DNA of 64,000 nt from Roseobacter sp. (GTDB lineage Bacteria > Pseudomonadota > Alphaproteobacteria > Rhodobacterales > Rhodobacteraceae), in contig DRFG01000092.1 in NCBI GenBank assembly GCA_011050655.1, forward strand, positions 12,053 to 76,052. Direction: 5' to 3'. This document shows, piece by piece, positions 13,501-44,800 of this stretch (position 1 is its first letter; each line of letters begins with the position of its first letter). The notes beneath the pieces were generated by a model. The model was not told the origin of the DNA. It worked only from the letters and a program-made list of their open reading frames with translations, and did no database searches. The translations under genes and the position numbers were made by a program.

Positions 13501-14460
13501 TCACTTTGCCTTGCGGTACTTTTCCAGCCCGCCAGTATGCATCACCCGGCCCATCAAAGGAGCCCCGATGATTGTTTCGGCTTTCTGCGCGGCAAGGATC
13601 AGTTTATCCAAGTCAATGCCGGTTTCGATCCCCAGTTCGTGACACAGGAATACCATATCTTCGGTGCTGACATTGCCTGCCGCTCGGGCGTGGCCATGAC
13701 CGGCAAAAGGACATCCCCCAAGTCCCGCAACCGAGCTTTCGAACATGTCCACACCCATGCTGAGTGCGGCATAGACATTGGCGATACCAAGCCCGCGCGT
13801 GTCATGGATATGCATGCCGAGGCGGGCCTCGGGGGCCATGTCGCGCAGTGCTCCGATCATGCGTTTGACCGCTTCGGGGTTGCCCCAACCCATCGTGTCA
13901 GCGATCACAAGAATTGGCAACGGGATGTTTTCATCGGCGCACAGATCAAGGATGAAACGGAAATCGTCTAGCACCCGTTCCTGCGGAATCTCGCCTTCGA
14001 AATTGCAGCCAAATGCGGTCATCACATAAGCCGCGTCAACTGTCAGCCCCTCGGCTTTGTAAAGCTTGACCCATTCACGCTGTTTCTCGCGCATTTCCAT
14101 TGATGAGGCGTTGTTGTTCTTCCGCGAAAACCTATCGGAGGGGTAGAAAAGCAAGCGCGGGTCGATATCGACATCATGCGCGGTCATCGCCTTGCGAAAC
14201 CCTTTGTCGTTCAGCCAAAGCGCCGTGTAATTGACACCGGGCACGCGTTTGATGCGTTGAAACAGCTCTCCCGTGTCAGCCATTTGCGGCACGTATTTCG
14301 GACTGACAAAGCTACCGACCTGAATACGTTTCAAACCTGTGTCGGACAGCAGATCAATGAGCTCAATACGCTGCTCGATAGGATAAATCGTTTTCTCGAT
14401 CTGGAAGCCTTCGCGCGGGCCTTCCTCGCGGATTTCGACGAATTTGGGAAAATCGCTCAT
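13501..14460 (-). CDS. HMG-CoA-lyase-family C-C lyase
   Basis: EEGPREGFQ, GSFVSPKYVPQMAD, HIHDTRGLG, GLGGCPFA, GNVSTED. Confidence 0.9.
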   Translation of the reverse strand: MSDFPKFVEIREEGPREGFQIEKTIYPIEQRIELIDLLSDTGLKRIQVGSFVSPKYVPQMADTGELFQRIKRVPGVNYTALWLNDKGFRKAMTAHDVDIDPRLLFYPSDRFSRKNNNASSMEMREKQREWVKLYKAEGLTVDAAYVMTAFGCNFEGEIPQERVLDDFRFILDLCADENIPLPILVIADTMGWGNPEAVKRMIGALRDMAPEARLGMHIHDTRGLGIANVYAALSMGVDMFESSVAGLGGCPFAGHGHARAAGNVSTEDMVFLCHELGIETGIDLDKLILAAQKAETIIGAPLMGRVMHTGGLEKYRKAK

Positions 14461-16478: not shown

Positions 16479-16488
16479 GATACTCTCC

Positions 16489-19484: not shown

Positions 19485-19514
19485 ATCATCGCCCTCCATT
19501 CACATTTGCCCGGC

Positions 19515-20675: not shown

Positions 20676-20691
20676 TGTTCAGATCTCCGGT

Positions 20692-21471: not shown

Positions 21472-22649
21472 TTCGCCGCCCCTTTGGATTTGTTGTCGTA
21501 TTGCAGCGCAACCCGGCCGACTTTTTCACGCGCGATCACCAGTTTCTGGATCTGCGCGGTGCCGTCGCCGATCTGCAGGCCAAGCACATCGTTGTAGCGC
21601 TGGTGATGCGGCAGGTCGGTGGTGTAGCCATAATGCCCGTGCAGGATCAGGCATTGATGGATGATCTCGCAGCAAGTCTTGGGAAGATACCATTTGCACA
21701 TCGCGGCTTCGGATGTGTGTGGCAGGTTCTGGTCCCGCAGATTCAGCGTATAATAGCAAAGCTGGCGCATCATCGTCAGCTGGGTTTCGGCTTCGGTCAG
21801 CGGAAAGCTGACGCCCTGATACTGTACCAGCGGCGCGCCAAAAGCCTCGCGGTCTTGCACGTAGGCCCAAGTTTCATCAACGGATGCCTGCGCCGCACCC
21901 AGACATTCCAGTCCAATCAGTGCACGGCTGAAATCAAATCCGGCCATGATCGAGCCAAAGGCGCGGTCTTGTTCGGCCATCATGTTTTCGGCGGGCACAT
22001 ATACATCATCGAAAAACACCGATCCCCGCCCGACAGGTTTGGTTCCGATATCGTCGAAATGGGTACGGCTGATGCCCTTTTCGGTCAGGTCTACGAAGAA
22101 GGCACTGACGCCTCTAGATCCGCCCTCGGGGTTGCTAGTGCGGGCAAAAACTACGGCTGCATCGGCCTGATCGGCAAAGCTCATCGAGGTTTTTTCACCG
22201 CTCAGACGCCAGCCGTTGCCAAATTTTTCGGCCTTGAGCTGCAGGTTGGCGGCATCCGAACCTCCACGCGGTTCTGTCAGACCCAACCCGATGACCACAT
22301 CACCCGAGATGACTTTTGGCACCCATTCCGCCGCGATTTCAGACGAGGCATGCTTAGCGACCATGCCGCCCATAAGAGACCCAAGAAGCTGAATGTAGCT
22401 GGCGTTGAAATCAGCATAGGCGATCTCTTCGACAATCAGTCCGGCGGTGACGGACTCCAGGCCCAACCCGCCATATTCCTCGGGCAGGTCAGGGGCAATC
22501 AGGCCAAGCGCGCCCATTTCACGGATCAGTTCCCGATCAAACGTATGGCCCGAGGCCCGTTTCTGATAGCCAGGGGCCAATTTATCACGCGCAAACCGTG
22601 CGGCGAGATCGCGAAAGGTTTTTTGATCTTCTGTTGGCTGAAACTGCAT
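21468..22649 (-). CDS. aliB: Cyclohexanecarboxyl-CoA dehydrogenase-like ACAD
   Basis: LTEPRGGSDAANL, SGEKTSMSFADQAD, GRGSVFFD, GFDFSRALIGL, VLGLQIGDGTAQI, recognised as the AliB subfamily. Start trimmed to MQFQP. Confidence 0.75.
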   Translation of the reverse strand: MQFQPTEDQKTFRDLAARFARDKLAPGYQKRASGHTFDRELIREMGALGLIAPDLPEEYGGLGLESVTAGLIVEEIAYADFNASYIQLLGSLMGGMVAKHASSEIAAEWVPKVISGDVVIGLGLTEPRGGSDAANLQLKAEKFGNGWRLSGEKTSMSFADQADAAVVFARTSNPEGGSRGVSAFFVDLTEKGISRTHFDDIGTKPVGRGSVFFDDVYVPAENMMAEQDRAFGSIMAGFDFSRALIGLECLGAAQASVDETWAYVQDREAFGAPLVQYQGVSFPLTEAETQLTMMRQLCYYTLNLRDQNLPHTSEAAMCKWYLPKTCCEIIHQCLILHGHYGYTTDLPHHQRYNDVLGLQIGDGTAQIQKLVIAREKVGRVALQYDNKSKGAAK

Positions 22650-24798: not shown

Positions 24799-25653
24799 TC
24801 ACCGGCCAAACGCGGCTGCGTTCTCGGTGATGAAACCCGCGAACCGGCGGGCAGGGCGGCCCAGAACGTCCTGCACCGTGGTTTCGGTGCCAGACAGATA
24901 TCCTTTCGGGGCAAGTCCGGCCAGTTCTATCATCGCATCGGCGACCTCTGCGACCATGCCGGATGTTATCATATTGGCGCGCGCCTCGTCGGGGCCAACG
25001 GCGCGGCGAGTGATGTCGCGGCCAAGCGTTTGCGTCAGCAGCGCCGCAATATCGTCGCCGCTCAGTGCCTCGTCGCCGGTCAGCCCATAGGCTTTGCCAA
25101 GATGCCCCTCGCCGGTCAAAGCTTCGGTTGACACATCGGCGATGTCGCGGGCATCGACCCAGGAAACGGGTCCGCCCACATCGTCGAGGTAAGTGTTTCC
25201 ATTGGCGATGCTATCGGACTGCCACAGCAGATTCTGCACGAAATAGGTCGGTTGGATCAACGTCCAGCCCATGCCGCTTTCCTTCAGCAACTCCTGGCTG
25301 GCCGAATGCCAGATGCCAAAGGTCAGCCGGGCCTTGGGCGAGGCCCCGAGCCCGGTCGACATGACCATATGCTGCACACCTGCGTCTGCTGTAGCGTGGA
25401 CCACATTGGCCTTCCAGCGCCCCATTTCCTGATGTGCGGGCGTGACAAGGAACGCCTTTTGCGCCCCCTTGCAGGCCCGCGCCAGCGCGGCAGGGTCGTC
25501 GAAATCAGCCACCATGGCCTCGCAACCCTGCGCCTTGAGCGCCGCAATCCGCGAGGCATCGCTGGTCACGGCGCGCAGGGCGATGCCTTTGTCCGAAAGC
25601 GAAGAAATAAGGTGTGTGCCAATCGTGCCAGTGGCACCGAAAATAACGATCAT
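24799..25653 (-). CDS. NmrA-like NAD(P)H-binding protein (atypical SDR)
   Basis: VIFGATGTIG, WTLIQPTYFVQN, VSWVDARDIA. Start trimmed to MIVIF, overlapping the ligase stop. Confidence 0.85.
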   Translation of the reverse strand: MIVIFGATGTIGTHLISSLSDKGIALRAVTSDASRIAALKAQGCEAMVADFDDPAALARACKGAQKAFLVTPAHQEMGRWKANVVHATADAGVQHMVMSTGLGASPKARLTFGIWHSASQELLKESGMGWTLIQPTYFVQNLLWQSDSIANGNTYLDDVGGPVSWVDARDIADVSTEALTGEGHLGKAYGLTGDEALSGDDIAALLTQTLGRDITRRAVGPDEARANMITSGMVAEVADAMIELAGLAPKGYLSGTETTVQDVLGRPARRFAGFITENAAAFGR

Positions 25654-27587
25654 GTCTGTTTTCCTTGCAATGCTTCGATTGGGGCGATGGTTTCCGGGTT
25701 CTGCACGGACGACAGATCGCCCGGATCCTCGCCCAGAAATGCTGCCCGCACGATGCGGCGCATGGTTTTCATCGTCCGGGTCTTTGGCAGGGCTTCGACG
25801 AAATGAATTTCGCGCGGGCGGAACGGTTTTGAGACCGCTGTGCCCACTGCGTCTTTTAGAAAGTCGACCAATGCCGCGTCGGGGGTCACGCCGGGGGCTG
25901 CGACGCAGACAACGACAACGGCGACACCTTTCAACGCATCTGGCGCAGCGATGGCGGCGGCGTCGATGACTTTGCCGGTCAGGGTCATGGCCGCCTCGAT
26001 CTCGGGCGGACCGATGCGTTTGCCGGCGATGTTCAGAGTGTCGTCGGATCGGCCCAGAATATACCATGTGCCATCAGCATCATGACGCACCCAGTCGCCG
26101 TGGCACCAGACGCCGGGGAAGGTGGACCAGTAGGTTTCCAGATACCGCGCCTTGTCCTGCCAGATTGTCGGCGTCAGCCCCATGGGTGGTTGGGCCACCA
26201 CCAACTCACCGACCTCGCCCAAATCAGCCTCTGACCCATCCGGGCGCAGAACCTTGGCGCCAACCCCCAACGCTTGCGTCGAGAACCCGCCCGGCGATAG
26301 CCGGTGCAACACCGTTGAGGTCAGGATCGCGCCAAACAGTTCGGTGCCGCCGGAAATATTCAGCGGGGCTGCGCGATGGCGGCATATATGCGCCAGTTGC
26401 CATAGCCAGGCATCGTCGGTCCAGGGCTCTCCGGTTGATCCGACGATGCGCAGTGGCGACAGATCGTATCCGGCCAACGGGGCAGGGTCCTGTACCATAA
26501 ACTGACGCACCAGCGTGGGCGCCACGCCCATGTGGGTCACCTTCGTTTCGGCGGCAACGCGCAGCAAGCGAAACGGGTCGTCTGGCGTTGACGGGGCACC
26601 TTCGGCAAGCACCAGCGTGGCACCGGCCAGAAGAACCGAAATCAGGGTCAGCGGCCCCATGACCCAGCCCATATCCGTCATCCACAGATGCCGGTCATCG
26701 CGCTGAAGGTCGAGACACAGAAGGAAGTCAGTCGTTGCTTTGGCCTGAACTCCCAGATGCGTGTGTACCACACCTTTGGGCCGGCCGGTTGTGCCCGAAG
26801 TATAGGCGATCATCAAGGGACCTGCGGCGTCTACGGGAGCGGCGGGGAAGGTCGGATCGGCCGCTGCGATAGTGTCATGCCAGTCCAGATCGCGGGCCGG
26901 ATCGGCGGATGTTCCCCCGAATCGGCGCAGGCTGATGACCGTTTGCACCAACGGAAGATCGTCTATCGCACTGACCAGTGTCCGCTCCATCGCCACCGGC
27001 TTGCCCCGGCGCGGTGACGCATCAACTGTCAGCACAGCCCGGGCGTTGCTGTCGTTCAGCCGTGCGGTGATTGCGGGAGCGGAGAAACCGGAAAACAACG
27101 GCACAGCGATGGCTCCCAACCGGGCAATGCCCAGAAACGCGGCCGCAATTTCAGGGATCATCGGCATATAGATGCCAACCGCATCGCCCGCGCCGATGCC
27201 CCGGGCGGCCAGAGCGCCGGCGACACGGGCGCTCTGCTCGGCCAGATCGTTGTAGGTCCAGCTGCGGGTGGTCCCGTCTTCTGCCACCCAGTCAATAGCG
27301 GTCTTGCCGCCAAGTCCAAGGTCAATTCGCGCGTCGAGACATGTTTGCGTCAGGTTGAGCGTGGCACCGGTGGCCCAGCGGATATTCTCGGGGCCGCCGG
27401 TGAAGTCACGCAGTGTATGAAAGGGATGCGAGAACCGGATACCGGCAAGATCAATAATCTTAGACCAAAACCAATCGGGGTCGGCGTTGGACCGTTCAAG
27501 CAGGTCTTCGTATGTATCCGCGCCACAATGGTTCAGAAAACCGGCAAGATTGCTGTTTTTACGGATATCATCGGCGGGATCAAACAT
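25650..27587 (-). CDS. Acetyl-CoA-synthetase-like acyl-CoA ligase
   Basis: AYTSGTTGRPKG, WMTDMGW, GSTGEPW, HGDW, GRSDDTLNIAGKRIG, LPKTRTMKTMRR. Confidence 0.9.
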   Translation of the reverse strand: MFDPADDIRKNSNLAGFLNHCGADTYEDLLERSNADPDWFWSKIIDLAGIRFSHPFHTLRDFTGGPENIRWATGATLNLTQTCLDARIDLGLGGKTAIDWVAEDGTTRSWTYNDLAEQSARVAGALAARGIGAGDAVGIYMPMIPEIAAAFLGIARLGAIAVPLFSGFSAPAITARLNDSNARAVLTVDASPRRGKPVAMERTLVSAIDDLPLVQTVISLRRFGGTSADPARDLDWHDTIAAADPTFPAAPVDAAGPLMIAYTSGTTGRPKGVVHTHLGVQAKATTDFLLCLDLQRDDRHLWMTDMGWVMGPLTLISVLLAGATLVLAEGAPSTPDDPFRLLRVAAETKVTHMGVAPTLVRQFMVQDPAPLAGYDLSPLRIVGSTGEPWTDDAWLWQLAHICRHRAAPLNISGGTELFGAILTSTVLHRLSPGGFSTQALGVGAKVLRPDGSEADLGEVGELVVAQPPMGLTPTIWQDKARYLETYWSTFPGVWCHGDWVRHDADGTWYILGRSDDTLNIAGKRIGPPEIEAAMTLTGKVIDAAAIAAPDALKGVAVVVVCVAAPGVTPDAALVDFLKDAVGTAVSKPFRPREIHFVEALPKTRTMKTMRRIVRAAFLGEDPGDLSSVQNPETIAPIEALQGKQT

Positions 27588-28553: not shown

Positions 28554-29855
28554 ATGAATATGACGCCCAAACCCCAAAACGCTGTGCTGCATGACGGACA
28601 GCCAAGTAAGTCCGAGCAGACGCGAGAGACGATCCTCGCGGCGGCGGCACAGTTTTTCCGCAATGAAGGGTACAATGCCGCGACCATGCGCAAAATCGCC
28701 AAAGTTGCAAATATGGAAGCTGGCAGCATCTACTACCACTTTTCGTCCAAAGAAGACATTCTGGGTGAAGTTATGGAGCTTGGGTTGCGCCGCCTTTATG
28801 TCGAGGCGTCGCGGGTTCTGGCCGAGGCTAGGGCGCAGGACAAGGATTTCCGACAGGTCCTGTCAGAGATGGTCGATACACACCTGACCTTTCTTTTGTC
28901 TGAAGGCGATTATACATCCGCCAATATTCGCAACTTTCCGACGCTACCCAAAGAGTTACGCCAAAAACACCGGCCGCTGCGACGCGCATATTCCGACCTG
29001 TGGAACGGTTTCTTGGTAGAAGCCCAGCAGAATGGCTGTGTTCGCACCGATATCGCGATCAGGCCTGTACGCCAGTTCGTGCTCGGCGCGCTCAACTGGA
29101 CGGTCGAATGGTATGACACGGAGCGTTTTCCCGTCGCAACACTGTCCGAGCGGGTTACAAGGCTATTGCTGGATGGGATGGCCACAAAAGAGCACGCTCT
29201 GGTTCTTGTCCCCCGGCATCGCGACCGGCAGATTTTTGAACCGGAAGCCGATACCAACAAGGCAGCACGTACACGTATGCAAGTGCTATCTGCGGCCGCG
29301 CGGATCATCCGCGACCGTGGCTACAAAGCGGCAACAATGCGGGCCATTTCGACCGAGGCTGGGATCGAGGCCGGCAGCATCTACTACCATTTCGGGTCAA
29401 AAGATGACATTTTAGATGAAGTGCTGGATTTGGGGCTGCGCGATCTATTGAAGGGTGTGACTAGGACCGTTTCTGATTGGGAAAAGTTTCCTGATGACCT
29501 GAGCAGAATGTCTGCAGCGATCAAGACACATATGGAGTGTCTGTTTCAGGCCAGTGAATTCACTTCGGCAAATATTCGAATCTATGGTCAACTGCCCAGT
29601 AATGTGCGCGCTCGCCATTGGCCAGTGCGCCATGAATATGCGCAGCTTTGGGACCGCATTCTGAAAGATGCGCAAGACTCCGGTTGCTTGCGTTCCGATA
29701 TCAGGATCGTCCCTTTGCGGCAGGTCATGTTGGGTGCATTGAACTGGACCGTTGAATGGTTTGACCCAAAAAAGGCGGGGCAGGAGGGAAATATCTCGTT
29801 GCCCGAACTTGTCGAAATTCTGCAAAAACTGCTTCTTGGCGGACTGTCGAAGTAA
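28554..29855 (+). CDS. Tandem (two-unit) TetR-family regulator
   Basis: Two HTHs (EAGSIYYHFSSKEDIL; EAGSIYYHFGSKDDIL) and two ligand domains (SANIR...LGALNWTVEW), spaced 217 aa apart. Confidence 0.9.
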   Translation: MNMTPKPQNAVLHDGQPSKSEQTRETILAAAAQFFRNEGYNAATMRKIAKVANMEAGSIYYHFSSKEDILGEVMELGLRRLYVEASRVLAEARAQDKDFRQVLSEMVDTHLTFLLSEGDYTSANIRNFPTLPKELRQKHRPLRRAYSDLWNGFLVEAQQNGCVRTDIAIRPVRQFVLGALNWTVEWYDTERFPVATLSERVTRLLLDGMATKEHALVLVPRHRDRQIFEPEADTNKAARTRMQVLSAAARIIRDRGYKAATMRAISTEAGIEAGSIYYHFGSKDDILDEVLDLGLRDLLKGVTRTVSDWEKFPDDLSRMSAAIKTHMECLFQASEFTSANIRIYGQLPSNVRARHWPVRHEYAQLWDRILKDAQDSGCLRSDIRIVPLRQVMLGALNWTVEWFDPKKAGQEGNISLPELVEILQKLLLGGLSK

Positions 29856-30012
29856 AACAACACGTTCGTCTGAATGCGCCGGAAAGCCCCATTTTTCAGA
29901 TCAGCTCGGGCTAAAGCCTTCGGCGAGACTGCTTAAAGGTTTACTGATCTGATTGATGCAAGGCATTTCACTGCAAGCCTTTGTTGACAAATTTGACAAT
30001 TGGCGAAATAAC

Positions 30013-30029
30013 CAAGCAATCGTTTGCTT
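30013..30029. promoter_or_regulatory. Candidate TetR operator upstream of the tetR-mutase operon
   Basis: CAAGC-AATC-GTTTG (30013-30026), overlapping AAGCAA-N4-TTGCTT (30014-30029). Two TTGACA hexamers lie upstream at 29984 and 29993. Confidence 0.45.
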
Positions 30030-30044
30030 ATTTAAGGAATCACG

Positions 30045-30698
30045 ATGACAGCCTTGGCACCCAAAGCCAGAAGCAACAATCGCCGAGAACTCATTCTTGA
30101 CGTCTCGGCGCAGCAGTTTGTTGAAAAGGGTTTTGCCAGTACGTCAACGCGCGATATCGCCAAGGCAACCGGCATGTTGCCCGGTTCGCTGTATTATCAT
30201 TTCGCATCAAAAGATGATTTGCTTGTCGCCGTATTCGAAGAAGGCGTGCAGCGGATAAGCGCCAGTGTGGATACAGCCCTGGAGGCCGCGGGCGCGGACC
30301 CCTGGGTGCGCTTGCAGGCCGCCTGCGAGGCGCACCTGGCGATGCTGCTGGGTACAAGCAGCTATGCCCATGTCGTGATCAGAACGTTGCCGTCAGATTT
30401 CAGCGACGCGGAAAAGACTCTGGTTGGCTTGCGTCGGCAATACGAGGCGCGGTTCACGAGGCTTTGCGATGCGTTGCCATTGCCGCCACAGACCGACCGA
30501 AGCGTTCTGCGGCTGATGCTGATTGGCGCAATGAATCACACGCCAGTCTGGTACCGCGAGGGTCGCGATACACCAGCCGGACTTGCCCGTAAATTCATCG
30601 AAAATCTGCACGTGCCGCTGGTCGGGGCAGGGGCCAGCGAAGCGGCCCGTACAGATGCGTCAGGTGAACCAGTTTCGAGGAGGATTGAGGATGAATGA
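30045..30698 (+). CDS. TetR-family regulator
   Basis: GFASTSTRDIAKATGMLPGSLYYHFASKDDLL; IGAMNHTPVWY. Confidence 0.92.
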   Translation: MTALAPKARSNNRRELILDVSAQQFVEKGFASTSTRDIAKATGMLPGSLYYHFASKDDLLVAVFEEGVQRISASVDTALEAAGADPWVRLQAACEAHLAMLLGTSSYAHVVIRTLPSDFSDAEKTLVGLRRQYEARFTRLCDALPLPPQTDRSVLRLMLIGAMNHTPVWYREGRDTPAGLARKFIENLHVPLVGAGASEAARTDASGEPVSRRIEDE

Positions 30699-31119
30699 CG
30701 TTCTGTTGGCCCCTGCGCGGGTGCTGGTTACCAAGATCGGACTGGACGGGCACGACCGCGGCAGTCGCATCATCGCGGCCTATCTGCGCGATGCGGGCAT
30801 GGAAGTGATCTATACCAACCCCTGGCAGGCCATCGACGCGGTTGTGGCGCTGGCGCTCGAAGAGGACGTGGATGTCATCGGCATCAGCTCTTTGGCAACC
30901 GATCATCTGTTGGTTCCAAAGCTGATGGTCGCGCTGGATGCGGCCGGGTTGGGCCATGTGCGCGTCGTAGTCGGTGGCATTGTGCCCGATGAAGATGAAG
31001 CGAATCTGTTGGCCGCAGGCGTTTCGAAGGTGTTTCACCCTGGAGCCGTGCGCGAAGACATTGTCACCGAGGTGGAAAGACTTGCAATCGCCGCCAGCAA
31101 CGAACGCCCTTTGGACTAG
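30691..31119 (+). CDS. Cobalamin-binding small subunit of an acyl-CoA mutase
   Basis: KIGLDGHDRG (DxHxxG), GMEVIYT, VIGISSL, VVGGIVP. ATG after GAGG. Confidence 0.92.
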   Translation: MNDVLLAPARVLVTKIGLDGHDRGSRIIAAYLRDAGMEVIYTNPWQAIDAVVALALEEDVDVIGISSLATDHLLVPKLMVALDAAGLGHVRVVVGGIVPDEDEANLLAAGVSKVFHPGAVREDIVTEVERLAIAASNERPLD

Positions 31120-31131
31120 AGAAAGGCAGAA

Positions 31132-32826
31132 GTGATGAACAAGATAGCCAAGCCCGTGATGTCGACCGGAAAAGGTACACACCAAGCTGCATTTGACGAG
31201 TGGCAACAGAATTATCACGCCCTGATCGGGGAGGACAAACCGGTCAGAAATCGCTCTGGCATCAAGGTCGAACCGCTTTACTGGCCGTCGGACGATCCCG
31301 ATGGTGCCTATAACGGAAAACTTGGGTTTCCAGGCGCCGATCCGATGACGCGCGGCATTTATCCAACGATGCATCGCGGGCGCACATGGTCGCAGCGCCA
31401 GTTGATCGGGCTGGGCCGTCCGGTGGATTTCAATGGGCGGATCAAGAAAATACTGGCCTCAGGGGCCAGCGCACTCAGCATCATACCGTGCAATTCGGTC
31501 TACCGGGGGATCGACTGTGATGAGGTAGAGCCAGAAATTCTGGGCACTTGCGGGACCATTATCAATACCGAAGAGGACATGGACATATGTCTGGCAGACA
31601 TCCCGATTGACGAGATTTCGATCGGTCTGAACGATCCAAGCCCGTTCACCATGTTGGCGCAGATGTTGGTGGTGGCCGAAAAGCGCGGGATCGATTGGAA
31701 AAAGGTCACCGGAACGTCAAACCAAAGCGACTACATCTCGCATTTCGTCGCCAACCACATGTTCTATCGCCTGTCTTTGCAAGGTGCCCGCCGGGTGCAG
31801 CTGGACACCGCCGCCTATCTGGCCGAGCATGTGCCGAACTGGAACGCCTTTTCGATCGTTGGCCAGCATATGCAACAGGCCGGGGCGACCCCGGCACAGG
31901 CGATGGGGTTGACGCTGTCCACCGCCATCCAATACGCCGAGGATTGCAAAGCGCGCGGGATGGACCCGGAAAAATTCCTTGAACGGTTCACCTTCTTTTT
32001 CGACATCTCGATCAGTTTCTTTGAAGAAGTGGCCAAGTTCCGCGCCGGACGGCGTATCTGGAACCGGCTTGTGAGCGATCGTTTCGGGGTCACCAATCCG
32101 CGCGCCAAACGGTTCAAGTTTCACGCCCAGACATCGGGCTGCGATCTGACCCGGCAACAGCCGCTGAACAATATCGCGCGGGTAACGATACAGGCAATGG
32201 CCGGCATCCTTGGCGGGCTGCAATCCATGCACACGGACGGCTATGATGAAGTTCTGTCAACGCCTACCGAAGACTCTGCCAAGGTTGCCGTTTCCACCCA
32301 GAATATCCTGAAACACGAGGCGCATTTGTGCGATGTGATCGACCCGTTGGGTGGGTCCTATTACGTTGAATCCCTGACCGATGCGATGGAGGTGGAAATC
32401 CTGAATGTCATTGCGGAAATTGACGCGGAAGGCGGCATGTTCAAGGCCGTCGAAAGCGGTTTTGTGCAAGAAATGATCGGGGCCAGCGCCCTTGAATTCC
32501 AGGATCAGGTGGACAGCGGCGAACAGATCGTTGTCGGCGTCAACGCATTCAAAGAGGATGAAGACGCCTCGGCCCGACCTTTCCTGAAGCGCCCCTCGCA
32601 GGTACATATGAAACAACAGGTAGAGCAGCTGAAAAAGATCAAGGCTGCCCGCGACCCCGCTTTGCTGAACAATGCATTGCAGGAATTGCGTCAGGCCGCG
32701 CGGTCCGAAGATATCAACGTCTTCGCCGCCGAGATCGACGCGGTGCGTGCTGGCGCCACACTGGGTGAAATCGTCAAGGTGTTGCGGGACGAATTGGGCT
32801 TTGGCCAACCGCTTGTAGTCGCCTGA
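31132..32826 (+). CDS. Acyl-CoA mutase large subunit with non-canonical (pivalyl-CoA-mutase-like) specificity residues
   Basis: [82 protein letters not shown]. Confidence 0.9.
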
Positions 32827-32831
32827 TCACC

Positions 32832-33797
32832 GTGCAGGATCAAACCGCCGAAAAGCCGGGGCTTTTGGCGCGTCTGTTGGCCGGACAAACCGCCGCACTT
32901 GCCCGCGCAATAAGCATCGTCGAGCGTGATGGTCCAACTGTCAGTGCGCTGTTGAAAGCAATCCAGCCGCATCTGGGCCGCGCGATCGTGGTTGGCTTTA
33001 CCGGCCCGCCGGGTGCTGGAAAATCGACGCTGGTGAATGCGTTCATCGGGGAAATGCGGGGGCGGGGGCGGACAGTCGCAGTCGCCGCTGTCGATCCTTC
33101 CAGCCCGATTACCGGCGGCGCGGTTCTGGGTGACCGGATCCGGATGGCAGAGCACACGATGGACGCCGGCGTGTTCATCCGCTCGCTTGCATCGCGGGGG
33201 CATCTGGGCGGCCTGTCGGCTTCGGCCGCGCGGGTGGCTGACCTTATGGACGCTGCGGGCTTTGACGTGATCGTTCTGGAGACCGTGGGTGCAGGGCAAT
33301 CCGAGGTCGAGATGGCGGAAATGGCGGATGTCAGGATTGTCATCTCGGCGCCGGGCCTGGGGGATGACGTTCAGGCGATCAAGGCAGGCATTCTCGAGAT
33401 CGCCGACATTCTGGTCGTCAATAAGTCCGATTTGCCGCTGGCCAAACGGACAGTTGGTCAGTTGCAGGCAATGTTGGCCCTGCGCGCGCCGGGCGACTGG
33501 AAAGTGCCGGTCCTGGCGACCAATGCAGTCGATCGGACGGGCCTGTGCGAACTGGCCGACGCAGTCGATCACCGGGCCGCGACGCGCAAAATGAAAGGCC
33601 CGCGTGATGCCCTTGGCGGGCGTACCCGGCGCTTGCTGGCACAATCCGTCGCCAAATATGCAGAACATCGCGTTCTGAACGATACATGCGCAACCATCGA
33701 CGCGGTGGTTTCGGACCTTCAACAGGCAGGAATCGGTCTGGACGATGCAATTACAAAGGTCCTGATGCGACTATGCGAAAGCCAAGACAATGGATGA
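32832..33797 (+). CDS. meaB: MeaB/ArgK-family GTPase chaperone of B12 mutases
   Basis: GFTGPPGAGKST, AVDPSSP..GGAVLGDRIRM, FIRSLASRG, ETVGAGQSE, QAIKAGILE, VNKSD. Confidence 0.9.
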   Translation: MQDQTAEKPGLLARLLAGQTAALARAISIVERDGPTVSALLKAIQPHLGRAIVVGFTGPPGAGKSTLVNAFIGEMRGRGRTVAVAAVDPSSPITGGAVLGDRIRMAEHTMDAGVFIRSLASRGHLGGLSASAARVADLMDAAGFDVIVLETVGAGQSEVEMAEMADVRIVISAPGLGDDVQAIKAGILEIADILVVNKSDLPLAKRTVGQLQAMLALRAPGDWKVPVLATNAVDRTGLCELADAVDHRAATRKMKGPRDALGGRTRRLLAQSVAKYAEHRVLNDTCATIDAVVSDLQQAGIGLDDAITKVLMRLCESQDNG

Positions 33798-34224
33798 TTC
33801 TGCAACCGACCTACCGTCACTTGAACTGTTGAAGGCGCAATTTGTGGCGCGCGACGGTTATATGCAGTCGTTGGGCGCTGAACTGGCCAAGATGGGTCGC
33901 GGTCATGCAATTGTCCGGATGCCGGTCCGTCAGGACAGTCTGAACTTCAACGGAACCTGCCATGGCGGCGCGATTTTTTCAGTCGCGGATTGTGCCTTTG
34001 GGGTGGCGTCGAACAGCTATGGCACACTGGCGGCAGGCATTGACGTTCACATCACCTACAACGCCGCAGCCCGGCTTGGGGATGTATTGACCGCGACAGC
34101 AACCGAAGTTTCTCGGTCTCGCAAGATCGCGGTCTACGAAGTGACGGTCAGCGGCGACACGGCAGGGCATATAGCGTCCTTTACAGGCACGGTCTATATC
34201 ATTGGCCACAAGAATTTTACCTGA
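33790..34224 (+). CDS. PaaI-type hot-dog thioesterase
   Basis: LNFNGTCHGGAIFSVADCAFGVASNS. Confidence 0.88.
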   Translation: MDDSATDLPSLELLKAQFVARDGYMQSLGAELAKMGRGHAIVRMPVRQDSLNFNGTCHGGAIFSVADCAFGVASNSYGTLAAGIDVHITYNAAARLGDVLTATATEVSRSRKIAVYEVTVSGDTAGHIASFTGTVYIIGHKNFT

Positions 34225-34297: not shown

Positions 34298-34921
34298 ATG
34301 GCACTCTCGAAAACAGTTGCACAAAACGCCGAGGTAGGCCGCACGGGCATTCTGGATGCGGCCGCCTTGCTGTTAGGCCGCCAAGGATACGGGGCGGTAT
34401 CTCTGCGCATGATCGCCGAGGCCGCGGGGATCAAGGCCGGCAGCATTTACTATCACTTCGCCTCTAAAGATGACATTATCACGGAAATTCTTGATGCAGG
34501 AATCCAAGCGGTTCATGACGAGGTCCGCGACAGGGTGGCGGCCTTGAGTGCAGATGCGCCCGCGCGTGACGTATTTCGTGCAGTACTCCGTGGGCATCTA
34601 TGTGCTTTGCTGGAACATGGCGCTTACACCTCGGCCAACGTGCGCATCTTCGGCCAAGTGCCACCTGTAGTGCGCGACGCCAACCTACCGGTTCGCCGCG
34701 CCTATGAGGCTTTCCTGGATAATCTGTTGTCAGAATTGAAGGTGCGGGACGCGATCCGCAGCGATGTCAATCTGCCCCGGTTTCGCTTGCTGCTGATCGG
34801 CGCGCTGAACGCGACGCTTGAATGGTTCGACCCCCAGAAGGGCAGCGCCGAGGATCTTGCCGATGACTATGCCGACACATTCTTGAACGGGATTCTCAGC
34901 CAAAGCGGAGACAACACATGA
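34298..34921 (+). CDS. TetR-family regulator
   Basis: AEAAGIKAGSIYYHFASKDDII, SANVRIFG, IGALNATLEWF. Confidence 0.92.
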   Translation: MALSKTVAQNAEVGRTGILDAAALLLGRQGYGAVSLRMIAEAAGIKAGSIYYHFASKDDIITEILDAGIQAVHDEVRDRVAALSADAPARDVFRAVLRGHLCALLEHGAYTSANVRIFGQVPPVVRDANLPVRRAYEAFLDNLLSELKVRDAIRSDVNLPRFRLLLIGALNATLEWFDPQKGSAEDLADDYADTFLNGILSQSGDNT

Positions 34922-36516
34922 GCCGCATCGCAACCCGGATAGATACCCGATCCCCGGTTTTTGAACAAAACTGGGCGCAATCACAAACCTTGTTGGGAAC
35001 TCTGCGAACACGCATGGCCTTTGCCACAACTGGCGGCGCGGAAAAGCTGCGCGCCCGCCACCATGAGCGCGGAAAGCATCTGGTGCGCGACCGGATCGAC
35101 CGATTGATCGACCCGGGCACGGCCTTTCTGGAACTGTCGCCACTTGCCGCCTGGGGCCAGTATGACAATCAGGTCCCCGCGGCCGGAATCGTTACCGGTA
35201 TCGGCCTTGTGAAGAGCAAGCATGTGGTTATCATCGCCAATGATGCTACCGTCAAGGGCGGCAGCTTTTTCCACGAGACAGTGAAAAAACACCTGCGCGC
35301 GCAGGAGATCGCCGAACAGAACCGTATGCCCTGCCTTTATCTGGTGGATTGCGGCGGGGCCTATCTGCCGGAACAGGACCGGGTGTTCCCCGACCGCGAC
35401 CATTTCGGAAATTCGTTTCATCGCCAGTGCCGCATGTCGGCTGCCGGATTGCCGCAGATATCGGTGGTGTTTGGCGGCTGTACCGCCGGTGGTGCCTATA
35501 TTCCGGCGCTCAGCGATCAGGTGATCATGGTTGATGGCAACGCACGCATCCATCTGGGCGGCCCGTCAATCGTCAAGGTTGCGATCAACGAAGCGGTTGA
35601 CGGCGAGACTCTAGGCGGCGCCGCGATGCACACGCGGATCTCTGGCGTAAGCGACCATCTGGTGGCGGATGAAGACCAGGCGTTGGCGCTGGCCCGCACC
35701 CTGATCGGCGAGACGAATTTTGAGCGTAAGCCAGCAAAGGTCGCGCCGGTGCTGTCGCCGCGATACCCCGCATCAGAGCTTGGCGGGGTGATCAGCGCCG
35801 ATCCCAAAATGCCCTATGACGTGCGCGAAATTATTGCGCGCACCGTGGATGACAGCGGTTTCAGCGAATTCAAACCTGAATGGGGCGAAACGGTTGTCTG
35901 CGGCACCGCCCGCATACATGGTCATATGGTAGGGATAATCGGCAATAACGGCGCGCTATTATCGCAATCGGCACTGAAAGCCGCGCATTTCATAACCCTT
36001 TGCGATCAGCGCAACATCCCGCTTCTGTTTCTGCATAATATCACCGGCTTCATGGTTGGAACTGTCGCCGAGCGCGAAGGCATAGCCAAGAACAGCGCCA
36101 AGATGGTTTACGCACAGGCAGTCGCGCGGGTGCCCAAGCTGTCGGTCATCGTCGGCGGTTCTTATGGCGCGGGCAATTACGGCATGTGCGGGCGCGGCTT
36201 TCGGCCGAACTTCCTGTTCGCATGGCCAAGCGCGGTGCTGGCCACGATGTCGGCCAATATCGCCAGCAACGTGATGCTGGAACTGCGCCGGACCAATGTC
36301 AAAGCCCCCACCGCCACGCAAGAAGAACTGGACGAAATCGAATCCCGCGTGCGCGCCCAGTACGGCGAACAATCGGACCCGTATTTCGCCACCTCACGGC
36401 TTTGGGATGATGGCATCATCGAGCCTGCGCAAACCCGTGATGTGTTGGGTCTTTGTCTGTCGATCGTGTCCAGCACACCTGATGCAATGGGACACTCCCC
36501 AGTTTACCGAATGTAG
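34918..36516 (+). CDS. Acyl-CoA carboxylase beta subunit, MCC/GCC-like, set 2
   Basis: ANDATVKGGSF, KKHLRAQEIA, CTAGGAYIP, GGSYGAGNYGMCGR, PVYRM. Confidence 0.92.
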   Translation: MSRIATRIDTRSPVFEQNWAQSQTLLGTLRTRMAFATTGGAEKLRARHHERGKHLVRDRIDRLIDPGTAFLELSPLAAWGQYDNQVPAAGIVTGIGLVKSKHVVIIANDATVKGGSFFHETVKKHLRAQEIAEQNRMPCLYLVDCGGAYLPEQDRVFPDRDHFGNSFHRQCRMSAAGLPQISVVFGGCTAGGAYIPALSDQVIMVDGNARIHLGGPSIVKVAINEAVDGETLGGAAMHTRISGVSDHLVADEDQALALARTLIGETNFERKPAKVAPVLSPRYPASELGGVISADPKMPYDVREIIARTVDDSGFSEFKPEWGETVVCGTARIHGHMVGIIGNNGALLSQSALKAAHFITLCDQRNIPLLFLHNITGFMVGTVAEREGIAKNSAKMVYAQAVARVPKLSVIVGGSYGAGNYGMCGRGFRPNFLFAWPSAVLATMSANIASNVMLELRRTNVKAPTATQEELDEIESRVRAQYGEQSDPYFATSRLWDDGIIEPAQTRDVLGLCLSIVSSTPDAMGHSPVYRM

Positions 36517-36525
36517 GACCGTACT

Positions 36526-37326
36526 ATGACCAGCCGGACATTCCAGACCATCACTGTTGAAACGGACACGCGCGGCGTGGCGCGCCTGACGCTGAACCGG
36601 CCTGCCAAGCACAACGCGTTGAACGGTCAGCTGATTGACGAGCTCAAACAAGCCGCAGATTTGTTGGCGTCGGATGACAGCGTCCGGGTTGTTGTTCTCA
36701 CCGGCGAAGGCAAAAGCTTTTGCGCGGGAGGTGATTTCAACTGGTTCAAAGGCAATGCCGCAGCCGACCGTGCCACCCGTATCCGCGAAAGCAGCAAGCT
36801 GGCGCATATGCTGAATGCGTTGAATGCGCTGCCCAAACCGCTGATCGGGCGGATCCAGGGCCCGGCCTATGGCGGCGGGGTCGGGATGATTTCAGTTTGT
36901 GACATCGCCGTGGGTGTCGATACCGCACGCTTTGGTCTGACAGAGGTGCGTCTGGGGCTGATCCCGGCCAATATCTCGCCTCATGTGGTGGCACGCATCG
37001 GCGCGGCCAATGCGCGGGCCACGATGCTGTCGGGGGCCTTGTTCAGCGCAGCAAATGCCGAAAAGATCGGGTTGCTGAACGAAACGGTAACGCCTGACGA
37101 TCTGGACGCGCGGATTGACTCGATCATCGCCGACCATCTTGAGGCGGCCTTGGGTGCAGTCGGTGAAACCAAGCGACTGATTGCCTACGTCGCCAGCCAC
37201 AGTATCAACGACAGCATGATGTATACCGCCGATCGCCTGGCGGACGCATGGGAAACCGACGAAGGCACCACCGGCATCAACAGTTTTCTGGGCAAGACAC
37301 TGCCCCCATGGCGGACCGGCAAATGA
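36526..37326 (+). CDS. Methylglutaconyl-CoA-hydratase-like (LiuC/AtuE-type) crotonase
   Basis: SFCAGGD, AYGGGVGMISVCD (first Glu absent), FGLTEVRLGLIPANISP. Lies between carboxylase beta and alpha. Confidence 0.82.
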   Translation: MTSRTFQTITVETDTRGVARLTLNRPAKHNALNGQLIDELKQAADLLASDDSVRVVVLTGEGKSFCAGGDFNWFKGNAAADRATRIRESSKLAHMLNALNALPKPLIGRIQGPAYGGGVGMISVCDIAVGVDTARFGLTEVRLGLIPANISPHVVARIGAANARATMLSGALFSAANAEKIGLLNETVTPDDLDARIDSIIADHLEAALGAVGETKRLIAYVASHSINDSMMYTADRLADAWETDEGTTGINSFLGKTLPPWRTGK

Positions 37327-39311
37327 ATTTCTCAACCGTTTTGATCGCCAACCGGGGCGAGATTGCCCTGCGCCTTGTGCGGGCCTGTCAGGGTCTGGGC
37401 CTGCGCGCAGTCGCAGTCTATTCCGACGCGGACAGGGAGGCACCGCATGTGGTTGCCGCCGAGACGGCGGTGCATATCGGCCCGTCCGAGGCCGCCCAGA
37501 GCTATCTGGATGGTGCCCGGATTATTGCGGCTGCCAAACAGGCCGGCGCGCAGGCTGTTCATCCCGGTTATGGGTTTCTGGCCGAAAATGCAGGTTTCGC
37601 GCAGGCCTGCGCTGATGCCGGTCTGGTCTTCGTTGGACCGTCGCCGGAAAACATTGCGCTGATGGGCTCAAAAATCGCGGCCAAAGCGGTTGCGGTTGCG
37701 GCAAACGTGCCGGTTGTGCCGGGCTACTACGGCGATGATCAGTCCGACGACCGGCTGCTGGCCGAGGCGCATATCATCGGCGTGCCGCTATTGATCAAAG
37801 CCAGCGCCGGGGGCGGCGGGCGCGGTATGCGACAGGTGCATGATCTGGCCGATTTTACCACCGAACTGATTGCCGCTCGGGCCGAGGCTGAGGCTGCCTT
37901 CGGCGATAGCCAGATTTTGCTGGAACGCTATGTCGGCACCGCGCGCCATATCGAGGTGCAGATCCTTGCGGACCAGCAGGGTAATGTGCGCCACTTGTTT
38001 GAACGCGATTGTTCGCTGCAACGAAACCATCAGAAAGTGATCGAAGAGGCACCTGCGCCACTACTGCCAGCCGACGTTCGCGCCAGCCTTCTGGAAAGCG
38101 CGGTGCGGCTGACCAAGGGCATCGGCTATGACAGCGCGGGTACGGTTGAGTTCCTGCTGGATGCCGATACCGGCGAATACTATTTTCTCGAAATGAACAC
38201 CCGCCTGCAGGTGGAACATCCGGTGACAGAGGCGGTCACCGGCATCGACATTGCCGCATGGCAGTTGCGTGTCGCCGGGGGCGAGTCGCTACCATTCGCG
38301 CAAGACGATATCACCTGCTCCGGCTGGGCGATCGAGGCCCGCATCGCCGCCGAAGACCCGGCCAACAACTATCGCCCCGAGATCGGAAAAATCACCAGCT
38401 ACGCCGCCCCCGACATGCCCGGCTTGCGGCTCGATAGCGGTGTGCGCGCGGGCAGCATTGTCAGCCATTATTACGATTCCATGCTGGCCAAGCTGATCAG
38501 TTTGGCACCGGATCGCGCGTCGGCGATCCGGCTTTTGGATCAGGGGCTGGCCAAGTATCACATCACCGGGCCCGGCACCAATATCGCCTTTCTGCGCGAT
38601 CTTCTGGCCTTGCCGGATTTTGTCGCCGGAACGCACAGCACCGCATCCCTTGGTGCGGCTTATCCCGATGGCTGGCACGCGCCCATACCCGGCCACCATC
38701 AGTGGGCCGAGGCCGTTCTGACAAACTTTCTGGCCAGCAATGACCGGGGCGGACATGATCCCTGGACCGCATTGGGTGCCTGGCGCGTGACCGAACCGTC
38801 CGGTCGACCAGGTGGCGCCATTTACCGGATCAACGGTGAAGATGCCCGCATCGAGGGGCGCGACGGGACCTATATCGTCACCCTTCATGATCTGGCCCCT
38901 ATTGAAATGGAAAACGCCAGCCTGCGTGGCGGCATACTGTCTTATGAAACTGACGGCATGCGCCATAGCGCAAGCGCCGAAATCGACGGTGAGAAAGTTT
39001 CGTTGGATGGTCAAACCGGTCGCGCCTCGTTTGTTGTTCTGGACAGCGACAGGATCATTCAAGCGGCTGGCGAGGCCGCACTGGGTGGCGGCAATCAGGT
39101 GCGCGCACCGATGCCCGGCCTTGTCTCGGACGTTCTGGCCCAACCCTGTGATGTTGTCATCGCCGGACAACCGGTTGTTGTAATCGAGGCCATGAAACTT
39201 TTGCAAACCCTGACCGCGCCCTGTGCGGGCACTGTCGCCCAAGTCAATTATGCAGCCGGAGAAAACGTCGATATGGGCGCCGTGCTGATCACCATCGACC
39301 CCGAGGAATGA
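37323..39311 (+). CDS. Acyl-CoA carboxylase alpha subunit, set 2
   Basis: LIANRGEIA, HPGYGFLAEN, RDCSLQRNHQK, EMNTRLQVEH, biotin motif EAMKL. Start at MNFST. Confidence 0.92.
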   Translation: MNFSTVLIANRGEIALRLVRACQGLGLRAVAVYSDADREAPHVVAAETAVHIGPSEAAQSYLDGARIIAAAKQAGAQAVHPGYGFLAENAGFAQACADAGLVFVGPSPENIALMGSKIAAKAVAVAANVPVVPGYYGDDQSDDRLLAEAHIIGVPLLIKASAGGGGRGMRQVHDLADFTTELIAARAEAEAAFGDSQILLERYVGTARHIEVQILADQQGNVRHLFERDCSLQRNHQKVIEEAPAPLLPADVRASLLESAVRLTKGIGYDSAGTVEFLLDADTGEYYFLEMNTRLQVEHPVTEAVTGIDIAAWQLRVAGGESLPFAQDDITCSGWAIEARIAAEDPANNYRPEIGKITSYAAPDMPGLRLDSGVRAGSIVSHYYDSMLAKLISLAPDRASAIRLLDQGLAKYHITGPGTNIAFLRDLLALPDFVAGTHSTASLGAAYPDGWHAPIPGHHQWAEAVLTNFLASNDRGGHDPWTALGAWRVTEPSGRPGGAIYRINGEDARIEGRDGTYIVTLHDLAPIEMENASLRGGILSYETDGMRHSASAEIDGEKVSLDGQTGRASFVVLDSDRIIQAAGEAALGGGNQVRAPMPGLVSDVLAQPCDVVIAGQPVVVIEAMKLLQTLTAPCAGTVAQVNYAAGENVDMGAVLITIDPEE

Positions 39312-40456
39312 CCATGACCAACCCATATTTTTCCGACGAACTGACCATGCTGCGCGAGCAAATCCGCCGTTTTGTCGAGGCCGAGATCGTGCCGCACGGC
39401 GACGCCTGGGAAGAAGCAGGCAAAGTCCCGCGCGAGGTATTCGCCAAGATGGGCGAGCTGGGCTTTCTTGGAATGCGTTACCCTGAGAAATATGGCGGAG
39501 CGGATCTGGATACGATGGCCAGCGTCGTGCTGGCTGAAGAGCTGGGCCGCTGCACATTCGGAGGCTTTTCAGCTGACCTGCTGGTGCACACGGATATGGC
39601 CAGTCCGCATCTGGCCAATGTAGGCACACCCGAACAAATGGCACGCTGGATGCCGGGTATCACGTCAGGCAAAAGCGTCTGTGCCGTTGCCGTAACCGAA
39701 CCCGGTGCCGGGTCAGACGTGGCAGGAATGCGCACACGCGCGGTCCGCGACGGCAATGGCTGGGTGATCAACGGTACCAAAATGTTCATCACTAATGGTG
39801 TGCATGGCGATCTGTTTTTCGTCGCTGCCAAAACCAACACCGAAGCAAAAGGTTCGCGCGGGGTCACGATCTTTGCAGTCGAAAAAGGCACAGCGGGATT
39901 TTCGGTCGGCAAGAAGCTGAACAAGACTGGATGGCTGTGTTCGGATACTGCCGAACTGGTTTTTGACAACGTCCGTGTCACAGGCGACCATATTCTGGGC
40001 GAGGTTGATAAGGGTTTCTACGCCATCATGAAGAACTTTCAGAACGAACGAACGGTTCTGGGAGCGATGGCCATGGGTGAGGCGCAGAAAGCCATCGAAC
40101 TGACGCTGGATTATGTGAAGGATCGTCCTGCCTTTGGCGGTGTTCTATGGGACAAACAGGTGATCCGTCACCGACTTGCCGAGCGCGCCGCCCAGGTCGA
40201 GGCTGGCCGGCAACTAGTCTACAGCGCGGCGTGGAAAGACGCTCAGGGGATGGATTGTGTCAAAGAGGTTTCGATGGTCAAGGCCTATTGCGGCGATCTG
40301 GTCAACAAGGTGATGTATGATTGCGTTCAGTTTCACGGCGGCATGGGCTACATGCGCGAAACCCCGGTTGAACGGATGTCTCGCGACGCGCGTATTCAGG
40401 CCATTGGCGGCGGCGCAACCGAAGTGATGTTGGAAGAAATTGCCAAGCGGCTTTAG
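39308..40456 (+). CDS. Acyl-CoA dehydrogenase
   Basis: AVAVTEPGAGSDVA, NGTKMFITNG, FQNER, QFHGGMGYM, IGGGATEVM. Confidence 0.92.
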   Translation: MTMTNPYFSDELTMLREQIRRFVEAEIVPHGDAWEEAGKVPREVFAKMGELGFLGMRYPEKYGGADLDTMASVVLAEELGRCTFGGFSADLLVHTDMASPHLANVGTPEQMARWMPGITSGKSVCAVAVTEPGAGSDVAGMRTRAVRDGNGWVINGTKMFITNGVHGDLFFVAAKTNTEAKGSRGVTIFAVEKGTAGFSVGKKLNKTGWLCSDTAELVFDNVRVTGDHILGEVDKGFYAIMKNFQNERTVLGAMAMGEAQKAIELTLDYVKDRPAFGGVLWDKQVIRHRLAERAAQVEAGRQLVYSAAWKDAQGMDCVKEVSMVKAYCGDLVNKVMYDCVQFHGGMGYMRETPVERMSRDARIQAIGGGATEVMLEEIAKRL

Positions 40457-42253: not shown

Positions 42254-42313
42254 GATATGGCCTTCTTTGGGGCGGGGGCGAATACCTCGCCCCCGCAGAT
42301 ATTTCCGTGGATT

Positions 42314-42952: not shown

Positions 42953-42959
42953 GGTTTCC

Positions 42960-43859: not shown

Positions 43860-43914
43860 TGGGTATTCCTCGATTTTTCGGGTTGGATTTGGATGTTCAA
43901 GCGTCTGATGGGAT

Positions 43915-44727: not shown

Positions 44728-44800
44728 GTACTGCATCCTTTCGTCTTTATTGCGAGCGAAGCCTGACGATCCAGCCCGCCTATGGTTGCTAAGATTCCGG

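Follow-up and report, generated by a model that had tools for sequence, protein, structure and literature searches.

Which reaction is catalysed by an adenosylcobalamin-dependent acyl-CoA mutase that carries Leu and Asn where methylmalonyl-CoA mutase (MCM) has the Tyr and Arg that bind the carboxylate of its substrate? This question is raised by a stretch of 64,000 nucleotides of Roseobacter sp. DNA (contig DRFG01000092.1, positions 12,053 to 76,052; here called the window, in whose numbering all coordinates are given), which encodes the small subunit, the large subunit and a MeaB-type chaperone of such an enzyme as three co-directional genes. Our analysis makes it probable that the locus encodes the orthologous counterpart of pivalyl-CoA mutase (PCM), an adenosylcobalamin-dependent enzyme of Xanthobacter autotrophicus Py2, and belongs to a pivalate (tert-butyl) catabolic module.

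Active-site residues of the large subunit

The large, substrate-binding subunit (31132..32826, forward strand; 564 amino acids; PF01642, 543 bits) was aligned with HMMER to Protein Data Bank (PDB) chains (1REQ, 5REQ, 2XIJ and 4R3U), which set the register of its residues. Opposite RQ-L91-IGL stand RQ-Y-AGF in human and P. shermanii MCM and RQ-I-AGF in 2-hydroxyisobutyryl-CoA mutase (HCM, 4R3U), and the column of Leu91 is pinned to Tyr89 of MCM because the Y89F mutant 5REQ has its Phe exactly there. Q198 pairs with Q197 of MCM, with an insertion of one residue before it, and N208 pairs with R207 of MCM (MVRNT) and with the Gln of HCM (MAQKE). GQHMQQAG stands for GYHMQEAG of MCM, Tyr243 and Glu247 both being replaced by Gln while His244 is unchanged, and PCNSV is found opposite FDLAT in human MCM, FDLPT in P. 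shermanii MCM and FDMPT in HCM. The initial annotation had assigned all of these residues to the same positions; the formal alignment to the four structures agreed and shifted none of them to a canonical residue. Our numbering may be off by one: in RefSeq the near-identical large-subunit gene begins at ATG 31135, one codon further on, and its product has 563 amino acids.

Could the enzyme nevertheless be an MCM, an isobutyryl-CoA mutase or an HCM that has been misjudged, in keeping with the generic names in the databases? Its relatives in the databases are called 'methylmalonyl-CoA mutase', and HCM is the closest solved structure: HcmAB (4R3U) gives a full-length match of 368 bits and shares the fold, the split into large and small subunit, the MeaB-type partner and the conserved His244, Gln197 and cofactor-contact regions. 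However, the defining residues are absent. At Tyr89, Arg207 and the Tyr243-His244 pair, the signature of MCM, the window protein has Leu, Asn and Gln, and His244 alone is kept. At the sites that we take to be the HCM markers, namely Ile90, Asp117 (STDFDMPT) and the Gln at the Arg207 site (numbered from the chain offset), the 4R3U alignment gives Leu, Ile (SIIPCNS) and Asn. Isobutyryl-CoA mutase (ICM) and its fused form IcmF have Phe in place of Tyr89 and Gln in place of Arg207; these sites are again Leu and Asn in the window protein, and its match to IcmF is weak (169 bits). Identity to the MCM, ICM and HCM enzymes is about 40% or less, compared with 60% to PCM, and a tree separates them from it. 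We therefore consider a misjudged enzyme of these types very improbable.

The known systems differ from the window enzyme in further respects. HcmAB, with about 40% identity, has GYHISEAG and FDMPT besides its Ile and Gln, and acts on hydroxylated C4 acyl-CoAs. MCM (1REQ, 2XIJ; identity 35–40%) has the same fold, cofactor and radical 1,2-shift of the thioester group, but both of its carboxylate-binding residues, Tyr89 and Arg207, are replaced. IcmF (4XC6) catalyzes the same type of reaction and likewise depends on a G-protein chaperone, but is fused into one polypeptide, which includes a G-domain of its own. IcmF also interconverts pivalyl-CoA and isovaleryl-CoA as a side activity (PMC10481361).

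None of the 82 clade members described below (81 related loci and the window) departs from L91, P119, C120, N208, Q245, H246 and Q249, so the signature motifs must be under selection and are no product of chance. The sole exception among 83 aligned sequences is a neighbouring paralogue with Phe/Gln. At this outlier among the 81 loci a second mutase large subunit adjoins the PCM-type gene; with Phe91, F-D at 119–120, Gln208, Tyr245 and Glu249 it carries a signature that, judged by these residues, is ICM-like.

Orthology to the pivalyl-CoA mutase of Xanthobacter

In a translated plasmid search Xaut_5043 on pXAUT01 of X. autotrophicus Py2 showed 60.5% identity to the large subunit, whereas all other mutases found there reached at most 40%. 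By exact-sequence look-up Xaut_5043 is UniProt A7IQE5, "RecName: Pivalyl-CoA mutase large subunit", and Xaut_5044 is named "Pivalyl-CoA mutase small subunit". The Xanthobacter PCM was reportedly characterised by Kitanishi, Cracan and Banerjee in J Biol Chem in 2015. The motifs of Xaut_5043 match those of the window protein (RQLIGLG, PC(C/N) and (I/V)ANH), which upholds the earlier claim that a Leu/Asn pair marks the Xanthobacter enzyme: RQLIGLG and ANH stand at the corresponding places. Xaut_5043 also has Gln at Tyr243, Gln at Glu247 and the P-C motif in the alignment. These further substitutions had been taken as a sign of a bulkier, possibly cyclic substrate, a claim that finds no support: being present in the characterised enzyme and in every member of the clade, they are uninformative on this point.

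Gene order is equal in both organisms, in Xanthobacter TetR (5045), small subunit (5044), large subunit (5043), MeaB (5042) and PaaD (5041). Identity to the Xanthobacter counterparts is 74% for the small subunit, 67% for MeaB, 44% for TetR and 35% for the PaaI-like thioesterase. The two systems thus share the two subunits, the Leu/Asn/Gln/His244/Gln/P-C signature, the operon order and a location on a plasmid. They differ in what surrounds the operon: PaaK-like and AMP-dependent ligases and an ABC transporter follow downstream in Xanthobacter, whereas in the window an acetyl-CoA synthetase (ACS)-like ligase lies upstream and the genes downstream encode a 3-methylcrotonyl-CoA carboxylase (MCC)-type carboxylase, a hydratase and a dehydrogenase.

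A neighbour-joining tree (512 columns, 200 bootstraps) clustered the window protein, Xaut_5043 and the library representative P0125 in 200 of 200 bootstraps (100%) and set MCM, HCM and ICM-type enzymes apart from this PCM clade. The library, clustered at 50% identity, contains one full-length representative of the clade (748 bits). The runner-up reaches 473 bits; its identity of 43% is exceeded by nothing outside the clade, compared with the 60.5% to Xaut_5043. Since signature, operon order and a clade with 100% bootstrap support coincide, the enzyme belongs to the known PCM family and represents no new kind. Of the two possibilities held out by the initial annotation, a PCM-like enzyme or a new isomerase, the first is borne out by the match to Xaut_5043 and the second loses its support, since that protein has the same substitutions. 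The same annotation had considered near-identity to PCM; at 60.5% this does not apply, but signature, operon order and the fully supported clade make the window enzyme a clear orthologue. Judged by sequence, the unusual active site is the normal signature of the PCM family, and the chemistry is predicted not to be new.

The nearest sisters of the PCM clade are two uncharacterised mutase families of the library outside the window, P0127 and P0128 (41–43% identity, 98.5% bootstrap). Like it, they have Leu where MCM has Tyr89, Gln where MCM has Tyr243 and one extra residue ahead of Gln197; their motifs differ otherwise (RRNLIGLR / TPDNTF / VGQNIQQK and KRLLVGYG / TGSSVS / IGQHYAQN). Two long library matches, P0230 and P0231, were considered as IcmF and rejected, as they are MCM fusions.

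Partner genes, conserved neighbourhood and expression

The first gene of the mutase operon encodes a TetR-family regulator (30045..30698, forward strand, as are all genes of this operon; NCBIfam TetR-type matches), the stop of which overlaps the start of the small-subunit gene by 8 nt. The small, B12-binding subunit (30691..31119; 142 amino acids; PF02310, TIGR00640) shows the cobalamin motifs DxHxxG (DGHDRG, with the histidine ligand), SxL and GG by direct reading, and a separate PF01642 large and PF02310 small subunit is the architecture of the PCM clade. The large-subunit gene is followed by that of the MeaB-type G-protein chaperone (32832..33797; TIGR00750, 292 bits and above cut-off; PF03308), in which the P-loop GPPGAGKST and NKSD (NKxD) are visible and which would load and protect adenosylcobalamin. 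A PaaI-like hotdog-fold acyl-CoA thioesterase (33790..34224) lies above cut-off for TIGR00369, also matches PF03061, and scores 106 bits with TIGR02286 (PaaI), below the cut-off of 118.9. MeaB, TetR and the PaaI-like thioesterase are found as in Xanthobacter. A small subunit of its own, MeaB, the thioesterase and Liu/Atu-type genes downstream (34918–40456) had all been recognised in the initial annotation, and gene calls and family matches are in agreement with it.

Neighbouring genes were counted over the 81 related loci, both by clustering of all open reading frames (ORFs) and by tblastn. The small subunit is present at 78–79 of 81 loci, MeaB at 66–67 and TetR at 59–62; the PaaI-like thioesterase was found at 18 by ORF clustering and at 39 by tblastn. 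Beyond this core the neighbours vary, with medium-chain acyl-CoA ligases at 15 loci, thiolases at 13, ABC transporters at 10–17 and EamA exporters at 9. The downstream Liu-type genes, the upstream ACS-like ligase and a tandem TetR-family regulator are common to Rhodobacteraceae relatives only (L005, L007, L008, L009, L013). The tandem regulator (28554..29855, forward strand; 433 amino acids), a duplicated protein in which a whole TetR unit is present twice, with two TetR_N and two TetR_C_24 stretches, is conserved upstream in L005, L007 and L008. In a SAR324 genome (L078) a 62% identical acyl-CoA dehydrogenase follows the mutase genes.

This neighbourhood also bears on the direction of the reaction. 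As it is reversible in principle, the operon might serve biosynthesis and convert isovaleryl-CoA to pivalyl-CoA as a tert-butyl starter unit for a natural product; a polyketide with tert-butyl starter units is known from a marine-derived Streptomyces (PMC5355916). The window is, however, without polyketide or non-ribosomal peptide genes, the neighbours are all catabolic (ligase, dehydrogenase, carboxylase, hydratase, thioesterase), and the module conserved over the 81 loci consists of regulator, mutase and chaperone accompanied by uptake or activation genes. A biosynthetic role is scarcely to be expected.

TetR would act as repressor of the operon. A scan for inverted repeats yielded only a weak imperfect palindrome at 30009–30034, which could be a putative operator, and an Rfam scan of the window found no RNA family, so no B12 riboswitch is present in the window. 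The operon is matched at ≥99% identity and uneven depth by assembled contigs from runs labelled metatranscriptomic, which is consistent with its transcription. A contig from run X26 has a different sequence for 137 nt close to where the large-subunit gene begins (window 31155–31293), and many substitutions in 30779–31155; this suggests a related strain with a divergent junction of small- and large-subunit genes.

Downstream genes and proposed pathway

After a gap of 73 nt behind the thioesterase gene, a second TetR-family regulator (34298..34921; NCBIfam TetR-type matches) heads a group of Liu-type genes, all on the forward strand. A carboxyltransferase (beta) subunit of the MCC type (34918..36516) is followed by a crotonase-family hydratase, a candidate 3-methylglutaconyl-CoA hydratase (36526..37326; NF005675, 373 bits, above cut-off), a biotin carboxylase with a biotin carboxyl carrier protein (BCCP) domain at its C-terminus as alpha subunit (37323..39311; NCBIfam biotin carboxylase matches; gene start taken from RefSeq for the near-identical plasmid) and an acyl-CoA dehydrogenase (39308..40456) with three acyl-CoA dehydrogenase Pfam domains. 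The latter is of the isovaleryl-CoA dehydrogenase (IVD)/long-chain acyl-CoA dehydrogenase (LCAD) type and a candidate IVD: it has Gly at what we take to be the site of the catalytic Glu of medium-chain acyl-CoA dehydrogenase (IGGGATE) and a Glu in QNER, presumably an IVD/LCAD-like helix-G arrangement.

In PDB searches the carboxyltransferase scores 612 bits with M. tuberculosis AccD1, 588 with MCC beta of P. aeruginosa and 582 with human MCCC2, versus 428 with the beta subunit of geranyl-CoA carboxylase, and by these scores it is MCC-like and not geranyl-CoA-carboxylase-like. The window contains a second carboxyltransferase in another Liu/Atu-like cluster, 48% identical to the first. Geranyl-CoA carboxylase was rejected as the identity of either window carboxylase, as both score MCC-like. 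For the crotonase the second-best NCBIfam match is gamma-carboxygeranoyl-CoA hydratase, and by its matches it resembles Atu/Liu hydratases.

Upstream of the operon a divergent gene on the reverse strand (25650..27587) encodes an ACS-family acyl-CoA ligase of 645 amino acids (Pfam ACAS_N, AMP-binding and AMP-binding_C). In the PDB it matches acetate-CoA ligases best (362 bits), and in the alignment NISGGTE replaces the ACS motif DTWWQTE, so that the tryptophans of the acetate pocket are glycines. Loss of the acetate-pocket tryptophan in ACS opens the pocket to larger, branched acids, and the ligase is a candidate for the activation of pivalate, a bulky short-chain acid. Loci L005, L007 and L008 of Rhodobacteraceae have it too, beside the mutase operon and with 73–77% identity. 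Orthology to the Xanthobacter ligase Xaut_5039 was considered and rejected, the only similarity being a local match of 25% identity.

From gene content, motifs, orthology and synteny, all of them direct observations, we infer substrates, direction of flux and regulation. The ACS-like ligase with its enlarged pocket would activate a short bulky acid, e.g. pivalate, and the mutase would isomerise the product from pivalyl-CoA to isovaleryl-CoA. By analogy with the mutase family, homolysis of the Co-C bond of adenosylcobalamin would generate a 5'-deoxyadenosyl radical, which would take a hydrogen from a methyl group of pivalyl-CoA; a 1,2-shift of the thioester carbonyl and return of the hydrogen would then give isovaleryl-CoA. 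Replacement of Tyr89 of MCM by Leu, of the carboxylate-binding Arg207 by Asn and of Tyr243 by Gln would, by the same analogy, create an uncharged, roomier pocket for the tert-butyl group. The adjacent dehydrogenase, the MCC-type carboxylase and the hydratase would convert isovaleryl-CoA to 3-hydroxy-3-methylglutaryl-CoA (HMG-CoA) by the leucine/isovalerate route, and HMG-CoA would be cleaved by an HMG-CoA lyase. The gene for such a lyase (13501..14460, reverse strand; RefSeq annotation of a 99.8% identical plasmid) sits 17 kb away in the second Liu/Atu-like cluster, which has its own MCC-like carboxylase; it could complete the pathway of the mutase operon.

A pathway of the same logic reportedly operates in the denitrifying Thauera humireducens PIV-1, in which a CoA ligase and a B12-dependent pivalyl-CoA mutase feed the isovaleryl-CoA/leucine route. 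Pivalate degradation by this strain was reportedly described by Jacoby et al. in Environ Microbiol in 2022. We liken the two by the description of the pathway; organism and habitat differ, and probably also the arrangement of genes.

Extent of the clade and physiological substrate

The nearest 120 database clusters (62–90% identity) come from Rhodobacteraceae, Rhodospirillales, Gamma- and Deltaproteobacteria and bear generic names only. When the signature peptides GTSNQSDY and H[FC][VI]ANH[MQ]F were searched in 185,579 species genomes, they matched at least 598 stretches, which contained at least 569 confirmed relatives. Hosts among the matches listed include Alpha-, Beta- and Gammaproteobacteria, Nitrospira, Actinomycetota, Acidobacteriota, SAR324 and Desulfobacterales. 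Represented in no fewer than 569 species genomes of many phyla, mostly environmental metagenome-assembled genomes, the clade is far wider than a xenobiotic niche would suggest.

This breadth favors an alternative that accepts the PCM family but assigns to the enzyme of marine Rhodobacteraceae another uncharged acyl-CoA with a quaternary alpha-carbon, e.g. a 2,2-dimethylacyl-CoA from the breakdown of isoprenoids, carotenoids or tert-butyl natural products. The product would be a 3-methyl-branched acyl-CoA that enters a dedicated Atu/Liu-like carboxylation route. In line with it, the neighbours within the clade vary (thiolases, ligases, ABC transporters), and the second Liu/Atu-like cluster of the plasmid has ligases, CoA-transferases, a 2,4-dienoyl-CoA reductase and the HMG-CoA lyase. 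The Xanthobacter enzyme, moreover, has minority residues at two positions adjacent to the pocket: of 83 sequences, 76 have Asn and 4 have Cys at position 121, and 79 have Met and 3 have Gln at position 210; Xanthobacter has Cys and Gln. As the window protein has the majority state at both, Asn and Met, it is the characterised enzyme that is atypical. The adjacent dehydrogenase points the same way, as it is nearer to LCAD than to IVD. Against this stand the first-shell signature residues, all of which equal those of the characterised PCM, the carboxyltransferase, which scores as MCC and not as geranyl-CoA carboxylase, and the sequence itself, which gives no positive sign of a pocket larger than that of PCM. 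We judge another substrate of this kind to be unlikely. There is likewise only a small chance that the PCM clade as a whole, with its largely environmental and marine hosts, serves in general to process natural acyl-CoAs whose alpha-carbon is quaternary (2,2-dimethyl acids, products of isoprenoid or carotenoid ring breakdown, tert-butyl products) and not xenobiotic pivalate. That the LCAD-type dehydrogenase, the MCC-like carboxylase and the enlarged-pocket ligase of Rhodobacteraceae process such a substrate in place of pivalate is, to the same degree, doubtful.

We accordingly weighed the assignment to a pivalate module against several points that count against it. Pocket-adjacent N121 and M210 are unlike the residues of Xanthobacter, about 40% of the large-subunit residues differ from the characterised enzyme, and the window enzyme is known from sequence alone. 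The tie to the characterised PCM runs through a UniProt name. Liu-type genes adjoin the mutase in Rhodobacteraceae relatives only. Of the Liu module, the MCC-like carboxyltransferase, the biotin carboxylase/BCCP and the crotonase are seen, but the lyase lies in the other cluster, with none within the mutase operon, and the dehydrogenase scores 298 bits with LCAD versus 229–231 bits with IVD in the PDB search, so that by sequence comparison it is no clear IVD orthologue. PDB matches of the crotonase include the Atu-type isohexenylglutaconyl-CoA hydratase 4ZU2. The transcript evidence consists of assembled contigs from runs guessed to be RNA, for which DNA carry-over is possible. Finally, we know of no established natural source of pivalate in seawater, and it is the substrate used physiologically by marine bacteria that is least certain.

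Plasmid context and other gene sets of the window

Positions 1–25000 of the window share 99.8% identity with a plasmid of 147.5 kb from Sulfitobacter sp. BSw21498, a Svalbard seawater isolate; the plasmid is typed as conjugative in PLSDB, and its copy of the mutase protein is 99.6% identical to ours. The final 23 kb of the window are closest (95.9%) to a plasmid of Pseudosulfitobacter pseudonitzschiae. Since the part at 49428–63980 matches this plasmid and not that of Sulfitobacter BSw21498, the plasmid backbone is mosaic. This part (reverse strand) encodes an AAA_27 ATPase of 1135 amino acids with a metallophosphatase, an AAA_15 ATPase, a HipA-like kinase and a trio of DEAD-box helicase, BrxC/D-family ATPase and TerB-N/TerB-C protein, and is a probable defence island; at the corresponding place the Sulfitobacter BSw21498 plasmid has a Qat system.

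Genes for the catabolism of CoA esters make up about 40 kb of the window when all clusters are taken together. The second Liu/Atu-like cluster (8552–22649, reverse strand, and 22741–24780), with a 2,4-dienoyl-CoA reductase beside it, comprises two acyl-CoA dehydrogenases, an enoyl-CoA hydratase, an AMP-binding ligase, the MCC-like carboxyltransferase, a biotin carboxylase and the HMG-CoA lyase, and further a short-chain dehydrogenase/reductase, a citryl-CoA-lyase-like protein, a CaiB/BaiF CoA-transferase, another dehydrogenase and a dehydratase. Plasmids of Sagittula, Roseibium, Roseovarius and Phaeobacter have a conserved counterpart (nucleotide identity about 77%). Positions 1–8516 (forward strand) carry a thiolase, MaoC hydratases, a CaiB/BaiF transferase, two acyl-CoA dehydrogenases, an enoyl-CoA hydratase and a phenylacetate-CoA-ligase-family protein. 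Downstream of the mutase operon, at 41222–44736 (reverse strand), an LLM-class monooxygenase, a glutathione S-transferase, an NAD(P)H-binding protein and a class III extradiol ring-cleavage dioxygenase are encoded. That these genes are tied to the breakdown of tert-butyl aromatics, a possible source of pivalate, is only a thought.

Significance

The operon reveals no new chemistry and closely matches the characterised Xanthobacter PCM. What the assignment adds is a specific function for proteins that the databases list under generic names only ('acyl-CoA mutase large subunit family protein', 'methylmalonyl-CoA mutase'), and it covers a widespread family that roseobacters carry on plasmids and that is also found in many marine and soil bacteria not yet cultured. 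The assignment suggests that these bacteria can degrade quaternary-carbon skeletons, which are normally recalcitrant. In the window, ligase, mutase and downstream pathway are brought together on one natural plasmid.

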